A stretch of 64,000 nucleotides of DNA from a virus: the IMG/VR virus record IMGVR_UViG_3300050581_000221; one strand, given 5' to 3'. The notes below the pieces were generated by a model that was not told the origin of the DNA, did not search any database, and saw only the letters and a list, made by a program, of their open reading frames with translations. A program made the translations under genes and the position numbers. This document shows, piece by piece, positions 40,711-47,157 of this stretch (positions are counted from its first letter, which is position 1; each line of letters opens with the position of its first letter).

Positions 40711-41901
40711 ATGCAACCCTTCTTCGAGCAAGACAACCTGAGCCTGTATTGCGGCGATCTCCGCGAGATCCTGCCGACGCTGCCCGAGGCGTCGGTGGAC
40801 TTCGTGGTCACGGACCCGCCCTACGGGATCGGCTTCATGGAGAAGGACTGGGACCATGAGGTTCCCGGACCCGAGTATTGGCGGGCCATCGCCCGCGTGT
40901 GCAAGCCTGGAGCACTGCTCCTGGCCTTTGGTGGCACGCGGACTTATCACCACTTGACCTGCGCGATCGAGGAAGCCGGCTGGGAGATTCGGGACTGCCT
41001 CATGTGGCTCTACGGGCAAGGGATGCCCAAGTGCGGCGACATCGGCAAGCTGATTGATAAGTCGAAGGGCGCGGAGCGCCAAGTCATCGGCGACAAGCTG
41101 GATCGCCCCGGCTACCACCTGCACGAAGGCAAGGGAAATGGGTGCTATGGCGGCGGCAATGGACTTCATGCTCCCGGGACAGATGCTCGGGTTCGCGCCG
41201 CGCAGATAACGGCTCCTGCCACTCCCGAGGCCGCGCGATGGACCGGCTGGGCGATGGCCCTGAAGCCGGCGTGGGAACCAATCGTCCTTGCGATGACGCC
41301 GCTGGACGGCACGATAGCCCACAATGCACTGACTTGGGGCGTAGCGGGGATGAACATCGAGGCGAGCCGCATCGGCAGCGAAAGCACGGTGCGCGTCCGC
41401 GGGGACAGCCTGACGGACGCCGGCTGGGCCAGTACGAAACGCTCGCCCGTGGGCGGATCGGAGTGCGGACGCTGGCCGGCGAATCTGGTGCTGGATGAAG
41501 AGGCCGCCGCCGAACTGGACGCTCAAACCGGCACGCTCACCAGCGGAACCAACTGCGTCCGCACCAAGTCCGGCGACGGCTACCACGGCCGCATAGGCAA
41601 GGCGGGCGACGTTCAAGTGAGCTACGGCGACTCCGGCGGGGCAAGCCGGTTCTTCTATTGTCCTAAAGCGGCAAGGAACGATCGCGGGCCGGGCAATGAC
41701 CACCCGACCGTCAAGCCCCTGGCCCTCATGGAATACCTGTTGACGCTGCTTTCGACACCGGACGGCGGCGTGATTCTCGACCCGTTCGCAGGCAGCGGGA
41801 CCACGCTCTTGGCCGCCAAGCGGCTCGGCCGCCGCTCGATCGGCGTCGAATTGACCGAGCACAACTGCGAGATTGCGCGAGGAAGATTGCATGTCGCTTG
41901 A
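40711..41901 (+). CDS. DNA methyltransferase, N6-adenine/N4-cytosine type (beta class)
   Basis: Motif IV VVTDPPYGIGFMEKDWD near the N-terminus and motif I DPFAGSGTTLLAA near the C-terminus; paralogue of the genes at 55583 and 59462. Confidence 0.75.
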   Translation: MQPFFEQDNLSLYCGDLREILPTLPEASVDFVVTDPPYGIGFMEKDWDHEVPGPEYWRAIARVCKPGALLLAFGGTRTYHHLTCAIEEAGWEIRDCLMWLYGQGMPKCGDIGKLIDKSKGAERQVIGDKLDRPGYHLHEGKGNGCYGGGNGLHAPGTDARVRAAQITAPATPEAARWTGWAMALKPAWEPIVLAMTPLDGTIAHNALTWGVAGMNIEASRIGSESTVRVRGDSLTDAGWASTKRSPVGGSECGRWPANLVLDEEAAAELDAQTGTLTSGTNCVRTKSGDGYHGRIGKAGDVQVSYGDSGGASRFFYCPKAARNDRGPGNDHPTVKPLALMEYLLTLLSTPDGGVILDPFAGSGTTLLAAKRLGRRSIGVELTEHNCEIARGRLHVA

Positions 41902-43927
41902 AGCCGTCAAGATCGAAGCTCAGACATCCAGCGGCACGCGCATTCGCGTCCCGGTTCTGTTGGAAAGGAAAGACGGCCGCATCTACTTTTGGGACGGGAA
42001 GGTCGGCACGAAGACACGCTACGGCCTGATGGCGGAAGTCAAGGCCATGCGCGGCGCACGCTTCCACGGCTACGACGACGAGGGCGAGTACGCTCGTGTC
42101 AAGGTGTGGTCCGTGGACGACTGCCAGCGGAACCGCCTCCAGATCGGCTACCTCTGTGGCGAAGACGGTTACGCCTGGTTCGACCGGCCGCTGGCGCGCC
42201 ACGAGTACCGGCCCCTGGCGCGCGGCGGCGCGCCGCAGAAATTCATGCCGCACCAGGCGGACATGGCCGACGCCGGCTTGACGTACCACTACCAGATATT
42301 TGGGGCGGAAATGGGCACGGGCAAGACCCTGGCCGCCCAGATGGTCATCGAGAAGTCGGGCGTCGATCTGGTGTGGTGGGCGGGGCCGAAGACGAGTATC
42401 CCCAACATCAAGCGCGAGTTCAAGCTGTGGGGCTTCCCCTTCGACTGCATCCAGGTGGAATTCTTCACCTACGAGGGCCTGGTCCGCGTGATGGACGAGT
42501 GGGACGGCTCCCAGAGCTTGCCCCGGTTCTTTGTGGCCGACGAATCGAGTCGGTGTAAGAACGCCACCACGCATCGCTCCAAAGCCTGCCAGAAGCTCGC
42601 GGACATGATCCGCGAGAAGTACGGCCTCGACGGCTACGTGATCCTCATGTCCGGCACGCCGTCGCCCAAAACGCCTGTCGACTGGTGGAGCCAGTGCGAG
42701 ATCGCCTGGCCTGGTTTCCTCAAGGAAGGCGGGCCAAGGGCGATGGAAGAGCGGCTGGCTTTCATGGCCCAGCAGGAGTACGACGGCCAGAAGTTCAAGA
42801 AACGGATCGGTTGGAAAGACGACGAGCGGAAGTGCGCCGAGTGCGGCGAAACCTTCGAGGAAGGGCCGCACGATTTGGATGGCGTGACCGACCCGGACGA
42901 CTATCACCGGTTCGTCGCGAGCGCCAACGAAGTCTCGTACCTCTATGAACGGCTCAAAGGGCTGGTCGTCGTCAAACACAAGAAGGATTGTCTGCAACTG
43001 CCCGAGAAGCGATACCGCAAAGTCATTTGCAGGCCCACTGCCAGCATTCTGCGCGTGGCGGAGGCGATCGTCCAAGCGGCCCCCAACGCCGTAACGGGCA
43101 TGACTCTGCTGCGGGAACTGAGCGACGGGTTCCAGTACCGCGAACAGCAAAACGGCGTGACGGCCTGCACGCACTGCATGGACGGCACGATCGCCGAGTG
43201 GCTGGACCCTGATGATCCGCAGGCCCGCTATCAGGCCATCGACATGCTGGGTCCAGACTTGATGGCCCGACTGGTCAAACAGACCGTCCCCTGTCCGGCG
43301 TGCGGTGGCAAGCAGGAAGTCCCACGGACGGTCCGCATCGCGCGGGAGGTTCCCTGCCCGAAGGATGCCGCGCTGAAGATGCTCTTGGACGAGAACGAGG
43401 AGGTCGGGCGGCTGGTGATCTTCGCTGGCTTCACTGGCTCGGTGGATCGCATCGTCAAGCTGTGCCTCAAGGAGAAATGGGACGTGGTGCGTTGCGATCA
43501 GGGGAACTTCCAGGTATTCCGCGCCAAGAGTGACAGCTCGGAGGGTGCGTTGGCTACGGAAGAGGAGCCGTTGGATTACTGGGCGAACTTGGAAGGGCAC
43601 GGCAAGGTTGCTTTCGTGGCCAATCCCGAGTCGGGCGGTATGAGCCTGACGCTGGTAGAGGCCCGCATGGCGGTCTACTGGTCCAACTCGTGGAAGCCTG
43701 AGTACCGCGTGCAGAGCGAGGATCGCATCCATCGCAAGGGCATGGACGAGAACCTGGGCTGCACCATCGTGGACCTGATCCATCTGCCGAGCGACGAGCG
43801 CGTGTTGGACGTGATTCGCGCCAACCGGAAGCTGGAACTGATGACGATGGGCGAAATCCTCCAGGGCGTCGATTGGAAGGATGCCGGCGAGGAGGGCGAG
43901 ATGTCCGTGGAAGAAGTGACACCGTGA
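41891..43927 (+). CDS. SNF2-family helicase with Cys-rich insertions
   Basis: Walker A GTGKT, DExx box VADESSRCKN, C-terminal helicase motifs ANPESGGMSLTLVEAR...YWSNSW and QSEDRIHRKG; several CxxC pairs; the start overlaps the MTase stop. Confidence 0.7.
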   Translation: MSLEAVKIEAQTSSGTRIRVPVLLERKDGRIYFWDGKVGTKTRYGLMAEVKAMRGARFHGYDDEGEYARVKVWSVDDCQRNRLQIGYLCGEDGYAWFDRPLARHEYRPLARGGAPQKFMPHQADMADAGLTYHYQIFGAEMGTGKTLAAQMVIEKSGVDLVWWAGPKTSIPNIKREFKLWGFPFDCIQVEFFTYEGLVRVMDEWDGSQSLPRFFVADESSRCKNATTHRSKACQKLADMIREKYGLDGYVILMSGTPSPKTPVDWWSQCEIAWPGFLKEGGPRAMEERLAFMAQQEYDGQKFKKRIGWKDDERKCAECGETFEEGPHDLDGVTDPDDYHRFVASANEVSYLYERLKGLVVVKHKKDCLQLPEKRYRKVICRPTASILRVAEAIVQAAPNAVTGMTLLRELSDGFQYREQQNGVTACTHCMDGTIAEWLDPDDPQARYQAIDMLGPDLMARLVKQTVPCPACGGKQEVPRTVRIAREVPCPKDAALKMLLDENEEVGRLVIFAGFTGSVDRIVKLCLKEKWDVVRCDQGNFQVFRAKSDSSEGALATEEEPLDYWANLEGHGKVAFVANPESGGMSLTLVEARMAVYWSNSWKPEYRVQSEDRIHRKGMDENLGCTIVDLIHLPSDERVLDVIRANRKLELMTMGEILQGVDWKDAGEEGEMSVEEVTP

Positions 43928-44077
43928 GACTGTACAACCGCGCGGGGCGTCGGTCCTCTTGAGGCTGTCCATCCCTTTCTGCCCCTTGCTTTGCCTCTTG
44001 CGACCGACAGCACTTGAGCCGGGCGGCGGCGGGCAGCGCCGTCCGGCCTCTCTAACCTGTGGCATGACGACAGGCGT

Positions 44078-44911
44078 GTGGATCAACGTACCCTCTACAA
44101 CCTCAGCCTTTGTACCGGCGGCGCAGGTCTCGACCTGGGGCTCGGGCTCGCGCTCGGAAGCGTTCGCACCGTCTGTTGTGTGGAACACGAGGCGGCTGTC
44201 ATCGAAATCCTGGCTGAGGCAATGGAAGCGGGTTGCCTGGATGAAGCTCCTATTTGGACGAGTGTGCAATCCTTCGACGGCCGAGCTTGGCGTGGAGTCG
44301 TGGATACGCTCACTGCGGGCTACCCGTGCCAGCCATTCAGCAAGGCTGGGCGACGCCGTGGGCGCGATGATCCTCGCCACCTTTGGCCGCACGTGCATCG
44401 AATCATTGGCGAGGCTTAACCCGGCCTCGTGTTTCTCGAAAACGTGCCCGCGCATCTCAGCCTTGGATTCAGAGAGGTCATCAAAGACCTGGCGGGGCTG
44501 GGTTACGAGATTGCGGCAGGACTGTTCACGGCGGCAGAGGTTGGCTCAAGCCAAGGGAGGCAACGGCTTTTCGCACTCGCGGTGGCCGACGCCGACTGTC
44601 CACGATTATCGGACGCCCAACAGCGCCTATTCACAGAATCACCGGAAGCGGGACTGGTGCAAGGGGCAGCAACTCAGCAACTATGTCGCCCACTATTTCC
44701 GCCCGGACCCGAAAGCCCCTACTGGGAGCGAGAAGCGGACAACGCATTTGCCCCGGCTCAATCCACGGTTCGTCTGCTGGCTGATGGGCTGGCCCGAGAT
44801 CGCGCCCATTGGCTCCGGCTTCTCGGCAACGGCGTGGTCCCTTTGGCGGCGGCGTATGCGTTCTGCTCTCTGTGCGGTTCTTTGTGGAGCGGTCAAGAGG
44901 AAACACTATGA
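44078..44911 (+). pseudogene. Disrupted C5-cytosine DNA methyltransferase (dcm-like): in-frame TAA plus an internal +1/-1 frame excursion
   Basis: Motif I LSLCTGGAGLDLG and motif IV GYPCQPFSKAG (frame 2); TAA at 44417-44419; motif VI FLENVP and motif VIII QGRQRLFALAV (frame 2); WPTPT and motif IX-like RLNPRFVCWLMGWPE only in frame 0; motif X LGNGVVPLAAAYAF back in frame 2. Confidence 0.55.
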
Positions 44912-46224
44912 AGCTGACCAAGAAAAGGGTTGAGAAGATCAAGCAGGCCATCGTCGAAGGCGTCACACAGCCCGACATCGCCAAGCGGTTCCAGGTCAGT
45001 CGGTCCATCGTGTCTGACATCGCCACGGGCCGGGTCCACAAAGACGTGGCGTGGCCGGGCGGCGAGCCGCCGAAGCCGAAGCGGGCTGGCGGCCAGCACA
45101 AGACCCTCCCGGACTACGACCCCACCGACAAGCGGGTTTTGGAGTTGGAGGCCGAAATCGTCCACCTCACGGAGGAGCGGAACCGAGAGCGGCAAAAGGT
45201 CAAGGCCGGAGCGAAGATCGCTGGGCTGTTCAAGGCCGTCGTTGCTGAGATGGAACAGCGTGTCAAGCCGGTTGAGCCGCTGCCGCCTGCTTTTGAATAC
45301 CGCCGCAAGGCGCAGATCGTCGAGCATTGCGTCATGCACCTGTCGGACGGCCACCACGATCAAGTCGTGCGGCCGGAGGAGGTCGGCGGTCTGGAAGACT
45401 ACAACTTCCCGGTCTCGTGCTGTCGGGCCGAACGGTACGTCAACACAGTCGTGGAGTGGACCCAAGACACCTTGGCCCCGAAGTTCTACTTCCCCGTGCT
45501 CTGGGTCTTGGCCTACGGCGACTTCACCAGCGGGGAAATCCACAAGGCGTGCGAGCGCAGCTACTACCGCAATCAATTCAAGAACTGCCTCGCCATCGGC
45601 CAACTTCATGCCTTGATGTACCGCGACCTGGCCGCTCACTTCGAGGAGGTTCACGTCTTGTACCTGGCCGGCAACCACGGCCGGCGCACTCCCAAGAAGG
45701 ATTACCTCGGCGCACACGACAACTGGGACTATCTCGTCGGTGAAGTCGCCCGACTGCATTGTCGTAGTGTGGAGAATGTCCACTTCACGATTCCCGATGC
45801 CTGGAGCGCCAACGTCAACATCAACGGCGTCGGCTTCAACATCGCGCATGGCGACGACGTGCGGAGCAACCTGGGCATCCCCTGGTACGGGATGGTCCGC
45901 CGGCAGAAGGGTCTGATCGCCCTGGGCGCGGCGGCCGGTGCCCAGCGATGCCGCTACTTCTGTGTCGGCCACCATCATGCCGCCAGCGTCCTTTCGGATG
46001 TGGACGGCGAACTGCTGGTCAATGGCTCGTGGGTCGGCACCGATGCCTTCGCCTACAACGCCCTGTCCGGCTACCGAGAGCCGTCGCAATGGCTCCACGG
46101 CGTCAATCCCAAGCACGGCATCACCTGGCGGATGAACTGCAAGCTGCGCCACGAGAACGAGAAACATGGCCCCAAGCGCTACCTGATCGACGGTGGCCGC
46201 GACGTGGGACCGCTGAAGACCTGA
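44908..46224 (+). CDS. HTH domain fused to a calcineurin-like metallophosphoesterase
   Basis: RBS AAGAGGAAA; N-terminal HTH QPDIAKRFQVSRSIVSDIATGR; phosphoesterase motifs MHLSDGHHD, GDFT, GNHGRR, AHGDD, GHHH. Confidence 0.6.
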   Translation: MKLTKKRVEKIKQAIVEGVTQPDIAKRFQVSRSIVSDIATGRVHKDVAWPGGEPPKPKRAGGQHKTLPDYDPTDKRVLELEAEIVHLTEERNRERQKVKAGAKIAGLFKAVVAEMEQRVKPVEPLPPAFEYRRKAQIVEHCVMHLSDGHHDQVVRPEEVGGLEDYNFPVSCCRAERYVNTVVEWTQDTLAPKFYFPVLWVLAYGDFTSGEIHKACERSYYRNQFKNCLAIGQLHALMYRDLAAHFEEVHVLYLAGNHGRRTPKKDYLGAHDNWDYLVGEVARLHCRSVENVHFTIPDAWSANVNINGVGFNIAHGDDVRSNLGIPWYGMVRRQKGLIALGAAAGAQRCRYFCVGHHHAASVLSDVDGELLVNGSWVGTDAFAYNALSGYREPSQWLHGVNPKHGITWRMNCKLRHENEKHGPKRYLIDGGRDVGPLKT

Positions 46225-47082: not shown

Positions 47083-47157
47083 TGTAGCGTAGCTCAGTCG
47101 GTAGAGCGGGTGCCTGTTAAGCACTGGGTCGCTGGTTCGAGTCCAGCCGCTACAGCC
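47083..47157 (+). tRNA. tRNA-Asn (anticodon GTT)
   Basis: Cloverleaf folded by hand: acceptor TGTAGCG/CGCTACA, U8, D arm GCTC-AGTCGGTA-GAGC, anticodon arm GGTGC-CTGTTAA-GCACT, T arm GCTGG-TTCGAGT-CCAGC, discriminator G; CCA not fully encoded. Confidence 0.8.

Follow-up and report, generated by a model that had tools for sequence, protein, structure and literature searches.

On the plus strand of a 64,000-nucleotide (nt) stretch of viral DNA (IMG/VR record IMGVR_UViG_3300050581_000221; hereafter the window), positions 44078 to 44911 encode, in one frame, the large catalytic domain of a C5-cytosine DNA methyltransferase (C5-MTase), consisting of motifs I to VIII, a linker and motif X, with one TAA codon inside. 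We refer to this frame, which begins with GTG 44078, as alpha and to the +1 frame from 44076 as beta. The alpha translation matched Pfam family PF00145 (E 1.6e-25), and the set of C5-MTase motifs I, IV, VI, VIII and X was present in the single alpha chain, namely, motif I (LSLCTGGAGLDLG, 44102-44140), motif IV (GYPCQPFS, 44318-44341), motif VI (FLENV, 44432-44446), motif VIII (QGRQRLFALAV, 44552-44584) and motif X (LLGNGVVPLAAAYAF, 44819-44863, containing LGNGVVP). The alpha segment between motifs VIII and X held neither a target-recognition domain (TRD) nor motif IX; it was variable or neutral (ratio of nonsynonymous to synonymous substitution rates [dN/dS, or ω] of 0.5 to 15) and was modeled with low confidence by AlphaFold2. 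Within this segment, alpha encodes LFPPGPESPYW (44693-44725), a copy of the family motif (F/W)P(P/A/S)(G/R)P…W that is located between two beta-selected segments and of which P208, P209, P211 and W216 were at least 90% conserved among 67 alpha sequences. A second C5-MTase was searched for in the window and not found, and a nucleotide search against known phages gave short matches to methylase genes only.

The overlapping beta open reading frame (ORF; 44076-44933, plus strand) is co-extensive with alpha, intact in the window and open over 285 codons. Its layout comprises an N-terminal VWINVP peptide and a spacer of approximately 165 amino acids (aa) in the region where alpha encodes the catalytic domain, followed by a WPTP recognition-type module and the motif-IX-like LNPRFVCWLMGWPEI. 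Between alpha motifs VIII and X, beta reads WPTPTVHDYRTPNS (44583-44624; WPTPTVHDY…), part of the WPTP module WPTPTVHDYRTPNSAYSQNHRKRDWCKGQQLSNYVAHY (44583-44696, reading WPTPTVHDYRTPNS…KGQQLSNYVAHY), which is a presumed target-recognition element, and the motif-IX-like segment RLNPRFVCWLMGWPEI (44754-44801). In an alignment of 43 beta sequences, L228, L236, M237, G238 and P240 were invariant, and the LNP segment matched PHROG 1008, annotated as "DNA methyltransferase" (E 1.8e-13). Beta was 74 to 79% identical to database ORFs (P0121 to P0127) that are named "hypothetical protein." When a profile of beta-type ORFs was searched in a library of 1.84 billion proteins, 30,790 cluster representatives matched at an E of ≤0.001 and 4,054 at an E of ≤1e-30; the matches that bear a source name were again called "hypothetical protein."

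An earlier note on this DNA had described a dcm-like gene interrupted by a TAA at 44417-44419 between PCQ of motif IV and ENV of motif VI, with motif IX in another frame between motifs VIII and X, and had explained this arrangement as a decaying pseudogene or as sequencing error. Both observations held, as the TAA is seen in the translation and departs from the GAA or AAA of relatives, and motif IX is indeed encoded in the +1 frame (44754-44801). The comparison with intact homologues suggested in that note, however, contradicted its view of the frame change as a compensating excursion caused by decay, frameshift or assembly error. Intact homologues of 254 to 324 aa, 77 to 87% identical to alpha, aligned in the alpha frame over their full length without frameshift lesions, also across the stretch between motifs VIII and X (ADADCPRLSDAQQ…LFPPGP…PAQSTVRLLADGLARDRAHWLRLLGNGVVP). 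In the translated DNA of intact relatives (L001 and L003 to L005), the +1 frame encoded WPTPTARDY(K/R)TPNS… and RLNP(R/K)FVCWLMGWPEI, i.e., the same arrangement as in the window. A composite alpha-beta-alpha protein with two frameshift lesions was considered and dropped, as the intact homologues follow the alpha frame throughout.

We next describe the layout in two wider collections of loci, a metagenome set of 80 loci retrieved by the alpha motifs alone (GYPCQPFS and [RK]L[LF]GNGVVP) and a genome set of 79 of 329 loci retrieved from species-representative genomes by the beta motif FVxWLMG[WY]P alone. Nearly all 80 loci of the metagenome set encoded motifs IV, VIII and X in frame 0 and one to six W[PAS]TP modules and LNPxFVxxLMGxP in frame +1, and LMG and motif X (GNGVVP) were mostly 65 or 68 nt apart, i.e., 3n+2. 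Matches to motif IV or X in the genome set were always in the beta-minus-1 frame (both motifs matched in 25 loci), and the alpha and beta ORFs were co-extensive in nearly all 79 loci. Overall, approximately 170 related loci, with intact genes, isolate genomes and low-GC members among them, had the two-frame layout. The layout was found in complete chromosomes of isolates, Devosia sp. Naph2 (NZ_CP170082.1) and Neorhizobium sp. EC2-8 (CP147996.1), in genera that include Paracoccus, Rhodobacter, Rhizobium, Sinorhizobium and Brucella, and in metagenome-assembled genomes (MAGs) of Planctomycetota, Dehalococcoidia, Bdellovibrionales, Nitrospirales and Saccharibacteria. Both frames were open also in members with a GC content of 46 to 52%, and the beta motifs were still present in low-GC loci and where alpha identity was as low as 37%. 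Where W[PAS]TP modules were present, they were always in the beta frame. Their number ranged from 0 to 7 across relatives (L008 to L066, L127, L146 and L152), and the length of the alpha linker followed it; a varying module number could be a modular route to altered or multiplied target specificity.

The closest relative was a copy in a Thermoguttaceae MAG (L086; 78%). This copy is located on a 481-kb contig binned as Thermoguttaceae (JAXGPP010000005.1; region of 53.5 to 74.3 kb) amid phage-like genes, including a ligase, several N6/N4 and D12 methyltransferases and an RNase T-like gene, a context suggestive of a planctomycete host or of a prophage or large phage within the Thermoguttaceae bin. 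Among cultured phages, gp46 of Acidovorax phage Alfacinha1 (OP131590.1; L089, 712-1845) illustrates how the layout is annotated: this gene, MWLYIPSNF…WPTPASRDYRTPNS…RLNPAFGCWLMGWPIWWT, is named "cytosine-specific methyltransferase" and is actually a beta-type ORF, so that here beta itself bears the methyltransferase name, whereas the overlapping catalytic ORF (FPCQDIS, ENV and GNGVVPLQAA) is unannotated. Two database proteins, P0014 (475 aa) and P0195 (398 aa), are single ORFs in which an alpha N terminus is joined to a beta C terminus, as is possible because both frames are open everywhere. P0195 was considered as a true alpha-beta fusion and rejected, since it lacks motif VIII and is more likely an indel chimera; P0014, encoded on a 2.3-kb contig, is presumed to be one as well.

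The two frames differed in where they were constrained. In a sliding-window Nei-Gojobori analysis of six gap-free sequences of the window clade, ω in the N-terminal domain was 0.05 to 0.4 for alpha versus 0.6 to 2.7 for beta, and in the WPTP module it was 0.5 to 1.7 for alpha versus 0.07 to 0.14 for beta. Values for LFPPGP were 0.18 (alpha) and 0.36 (beta), those for the LNP segment LNPRFVCWLMGWP were 0.09 to 1.0 (alpha) and 0.11 to 0.16 (beta), and at motif X (HWLRLLGNGVVPLAAAYAF) ω was 0.09 to 0.2 for alpha versus 0.9 to 1.2 for beta. The alternation was sharper in nine Rhodobacterales-like loci, a clade unrelated to that of the window, in which ω_alpha and ω_beta were, respectively, 1.2 to 15.6 and 0.03 to 0.29 in the center, 0.27 to 0.45 and 0.8 to 1.0 in WPPGP…W, and 0.02 to 0.05 and 0.8 to 1.2 at the C terminus. 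The segment values in the two clades therefore place the constraint, along the gene, in alpha, beta, alpha, beta and alpha, in that order. Within the window, the GC content of third codon positions (GC3) tracked the selected frame: GC3 of the WPTP segment was 0.78 in beta versus 0.50 in alpha, that of the LNP segment was 0.82 in beta versus 0.53 in alpha, and at motif X it was 0.72 in alpha, with control genes at approximately 0.83. GC3 of the alpha-coded region 44102-44581 was 0.63, compared to approximately 0.83 for other window genes, probably because codon choice there keeps beta free of stops.

These results bear directly on the pseudogene explanation, by which a former single-frame dcm-like gene acquired the nonsense codon together with paired compensating frameshifts that displaced motif IX. 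A real TAA and a motif IX outside the alpha frame would both be expected under such decay, but intact relatives share the frame layout, the window aligned without gaps to five relatives across the whole gene, and the supposedly displaced frame was under strong purifying selection. Unique substitutions were not in excess in the window either, and we consider decay of a single-frame gene very improbable. A "ghost" of an ancient frameshift was likewise ruled out by the protein-level conservation of the beta motifs in the presence of synonymous turnover.

The unselected parts of each frame were nonetheless kept open. Synonymous codons were permuted within the selected frame, and stops were counted in the other frames. 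Over the beta-coded center, the alpha frame was stop-free in 41 of 41 loci (mean permutation P = 0.13; P < 0.01 in many loci), and over the alpha-coded N-terminal 163 codons, beta was stop-free in 40 of 41 loci (mean P = 0.27; P ≤ 0.013 in ten loci). In both regions, stops in the third frame, which served as a control, were as frequent as expected. The methyltransferase gene had no +1-frame stop over 278 codons; 21 other genes of the window had 335 such stops versus 349 expected, approximately 3 per 100 codons. The ends of the alpha and beta ORFs were approximately 10 to 60 nt apart. High GC content as the source of the long alternative ORF was ruled out by the permutation test, the third-frame control, the 21 control genes and the members with 46 to 52% GC.

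We also considered whether programmed ribosomal frameshifting joins the alpha and beta segments into one chain in the canonical order of motifs I to VIII, TRD, IX and X. The order of the selected segments is indeed the canonical domain order, and the mostly 65- or 68-nt spacing from LNP…LMG to GNGVVP would fit a change of frame. However, since the alpha-selected (F/W)PPGP…W lies between beta-selected segments, four shifts would be required, and neither the openness of the alpha center nor that of the N-terminal half of beta would be needed, yet both are kept; the zero frame is open in all 41 loci rather than closed downstream of the junction. In addition, beta has a conserved start and N-terminal peptide of its own, no conserved slippery heptamer was seen at the junctions by eye (no formal search was made), and the experimentally studied analogue, M.EcoHK31I, uses two polypeptides. 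Taken together, these points make frameshifting an improbable explanation.

The two frames divide the enzyme where C5-MTases have their structural domain boundary. For an intact alpha (P0003), AlphaFold2 modeling with 66 homologues gave a predicted local distance difference test score (pLDDT) of >90 for residues 1 to 170, except for the catalytic loop, and of 87 to 93 for the motif-X helix, while the 75-residue linker between these parts scored 38 to 69 and, judged from this model, is probably disordered. In a Foldseek search, the alpha model aligned over approximately 175 columns to M.HaeIII (1dct_A; E 1.5e-13) and to M.HhaI, and these columns correspond to the large domain; no part of alpha aligned to the small domain of either enzyme.

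Alpha and beta start codons overlap. In the window, beta GTG 44076 and alpha GTG 44078 form GTGTG (44076-44080, plus strand), and the sequence GGC-GTG-TGG-ATC-AAC-GTA-CCC is read in beta as VWINVP. In 78 of approximately 86 loci, beta started with ATG (48 loci), GTG (21 loci) or TTG (9 loci), followed by TGG after zero or one codon. The resulting N-terminal peptide, M/V(x)W[IL]x[VIL]P, was conserved as protein across phyla in high- and low-GC loci, and the alpha reading of the same bases was variable; the peptide could concern the initiation context, stability or docking. This peptide is encoded at 44076-44093 in the window and at the start of nearly all related loci (e.g., L029, L052 and L103); the approximately 165 residues after it were unconstrained. 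A beta-frame stop immediately preceded the start in 17 loci, and in many others one was found no more than six codons upstream with no intervening start. Alpha began at a GTG 2 nt downstream of the beta start (RTGTGG), at an ATG 4 nt upstream of it or at a GTG 5 nt downstream of it, and alpha-frame stops were often located only 4 to 13 nt upstream. Many loci had a single Shine-Dalgarno-like sequence 6 to 12 nt upstream; in the upstream region of the window, only a weak AGG was spotted by eye. The nearest relatives (L006 and L086 to L088) have TAG directly before the beta GTG, whereas the window has GGC and an additional in-frame ATG at 44064, and the window beta may therefore be four residues longer (MTTGVWINVP).

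The TAA at 44417-44419 (plus strand) is the sole in-frame stop of alpha in 44078-44911 and thus the only lesion in a layout that otherwise mimics decay and is in fact the normal state. It results from a single G→T change (GAA→TAA, Glu→stop) between motifs IV and VI (…RIIGEA-stop-PGLVFLENV…); the codon at this site was GAA in eight relatives and AAA in one. In beta, where the affected base is at the third position of a Leu codon (CTG→CTT), the change is silent. Given that the TAA is a true departure from relatives and that this phage uses TAA as a regular stop, the earlier interpretation as a broken gene or sequencing error is reasonable for this codon, although not for the frame change. Recoding, also proposed earlier, and a suppressor tRNA were rejected: TAA terminates 7 of 29 window genes, and the sole tRNA of the window, a tRNA-Asn, is not a suppressor. 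Nor was there a sign of the relaxed selection that had been put forward, as the window had 3 unique substitutions at otherwise invariant alpha positions, compared to 2 to 7 in five relatives. The lack of an excess of lineage-specific substitutions indicates that the TAA is recent or an error, and it is probably a recent knockout or else a base-call error. Judged from the position of the stop between motifs IV and VI, the enzyme would most likely be dead, and the phage would then probably lack C5-methylation of its own DNA while its adjacent N6/N4 methyltransferase is intact.

An error of sequencing or assembly, or a minority variant in the consensus, would leave the gene intact and the phage DNA methylated. 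The one-base difference from the GAA of relatives, with all else intact and conserved, is in line with this explanation. On the other hand, the neighboring genes are intact and no further hint of low sequence quality was seen, consensus assemblies seldom contain substitution errors, and interrupted alpha copies occur naturally: single-frame breaks were found in alpha of two other natural copies (L110 and L124) and in beta of a third (L158). We consider an error unlikely, although it retains more weight than the other alternatives.

The stop might also be tolerated, either because alpha residues 1 to 113 (motifs I to IV) are complemented by a fragment restarted at GTG 44429 (motifs VI to X) and by beta or because of low-level readthrough of TAA-C. 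A GTG that leads into motif VI (VFLENV; 44429-44446, plus strand) lies 9 nt downstream of the TAA, is a candidate point of reinitiation and has GAGG 14 nt upstream; complementation between C5-MTase fragments is documented (PMC2836561 and PMC3404938), and the absence of relaxed selection is compatible with retained function. A split between motifs IV and VI, however, cuts the catalytic core, the window has no suppressor tRNA, and GTG 44429 is a Val codon in relatives. Because the GTG and the GAGG-like sequence are present in intact relatives too, they are not an adaptation to the stop. A tolerated stop thus appears scarcely probable.

The reading that we favor, and regard as probable, is that the locus encodes a two-subunit C5-cytosine DNA methyltransferase in two co-extensive same-strand frames, with alpha nonsense mutated and beta intact. 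Alpha would provide the S-adenosylmethionine-binding and catalytic large domain (motifs I to VIII), a poorly conserved linker and motif X. Beta would provide the N-terminal peptide, a spacer that needs only to stay open, the WPTP module and the motif-IX-like LNPxFVxWLMGxP, and its last two segments would replace the small domain found between motifs VIII and X in single-chain enzymes. Both chains would be initiated side by side on one mRNA from the overlapping starts (GTGTG in the window and ATGTG in many relatives) and would assemble into the active enzyme, as in M.EcoHK31I.

M.EcoHK31I is a natural two-polypeptide C5-MTase that needs both alpha and beta (Lee, Kam and Shaw 1995, as given in PMC2836561). 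Its alpha (38 kDa) carries motifs I to VIII and X, and its beta (23 kDa), encoded in another frame entirely within the alpha gene, carries motif IX, with the first 42 residues being dispensable in vitro (PMC2836561). As in that enzyme, alpha of the window has motifs I to VIII and X without IX, and an alternative frame under purifying selection supplies motif IX. Unlike the beta of M.EcoHK31I, that of the window is co-extensive with alpha and has an overlapping start codon. Whereas the TRD of M.EcoHK31I is reported to be in alpha, the WPTP modules of beta are here the only selected sequence between motifs VIII and IX, and the alpha segment from VIII to X is mostly unselected and predicted to be disordered, a contrast that is drawn from the published description of M.EcoHK31I. 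M.HhaI, M.HaeIII and Dcm share motifs I, IV, VI, VIII and X with alpha, whose model superposes on their large domain, but in these enzymes the TRD and motif IX belong to that chain and frame as well. In M.AquI, a two-subunit C5-MTase that is split in the variable region and requires both polypeptides, the subunits are encoded consecutively with a short overlap, alpha having motifs I to VIII and beta motifs IX and X; in the window, by contrast, motif X is in alpha and the ORFs overlap fully. Like long same-strand overprinted genes of phages and other viruses, the locus encodes two proteins in one stretch of DNA, with alternating constraint and unselected parts that are not conserved. It differs from typical overprinting in that the overlap is complete, spans 280 to 450 codons and is conserved across phyla and in that the two proteins, instead of being unrelated, are complementary domains derived from a single ancestral enzyme. 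The overlap may be among the longest same-strand ones, at 280 to 450 codons, that are conserved across phyla.

Several points weigh against the two-subunit reading. Searches of Pfam, NCBIfam and the PDB with beta gave no relative, and an AlphaFold2 model of beta alone was poor (pLDDT, 61; predicted template modeling score, 0.27) and gave no reliable fold for the WPTP and LNP segments. The TRD of M.EcoHK31I was assigned to alpha, not to beta (PMC2836561). A nonconserved beta spacer of approximately 165 residues would be a strange and expensive arrangement, the TAA may have arisen by erroneous base calling, and that beta is translated from the shared start and assembles with alpha is our inference from sequence.

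Beyond the window, we lean slightly toward the view that a very large family of C5-MTases, distributed over phages and prophages of several phyla, is encoded by fully dual-coding genes, with the large domain in one frame and the recognition domain in the other, both co-extensive proteins being made from one mRNA region with overlapping start codons. In the searchable literature, we found no description of such a family-wide two-frame architecture except the M.EcoHK31I work; REBASE curators may know it. Gene callers choose one frame, so that alpha, a methyltransferase without a recognition domain, is annotated as complete, or beta is called a "hypothetical protein." If this view is correct, beta subunits would account for tens of thousands of "hypothetical proteins," and the majority of proteins of this type annotated as "DNA cytosine methyltransferases" would need beta to be complete. 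The WPTP modules (1 to 7) would set specificity and would expand in beta at the cost of linker length only in alpha, with each frame alternating between selected segments and segments that must only stay open. Prediction of specificity (of the type used in REBASE) should use beta for such enzymes, and the family would offer a natural system for the study of dual-frame selection, start codon competition and subunit stoichiometry.

Upstream of the locus, an N6_N4 DNA methyltransferase gene (PF01555; 40675-41901) overlaps by 29 nt the gene of a 684-aa protein (41873-43927) that matched PHROG 62, "DNA helicase." The overlapping pair of an N6-methyltransferase and an SNF2 helicase described earlier was thus recovered as a methyltransferase-helicase overlap, but the SNF2 assignment was unsupported by Pfam. 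The gene order N6-methyltransferase, helicase, …, C5-MTase, exonuclease, metallophosphatase, ParB and DNA polymerase A was also found in three relatives (L003 to L005). The tRNA-Asn gene (GTT; 47083-47157) is located between the exonuclease-like and metallophosphoesterase genes. A 909-aa antisense ORF (41726-44455, minus strand) extends across the helicase gene into the first part of the methyltransferase gene and is probably a by-product of high GC content.

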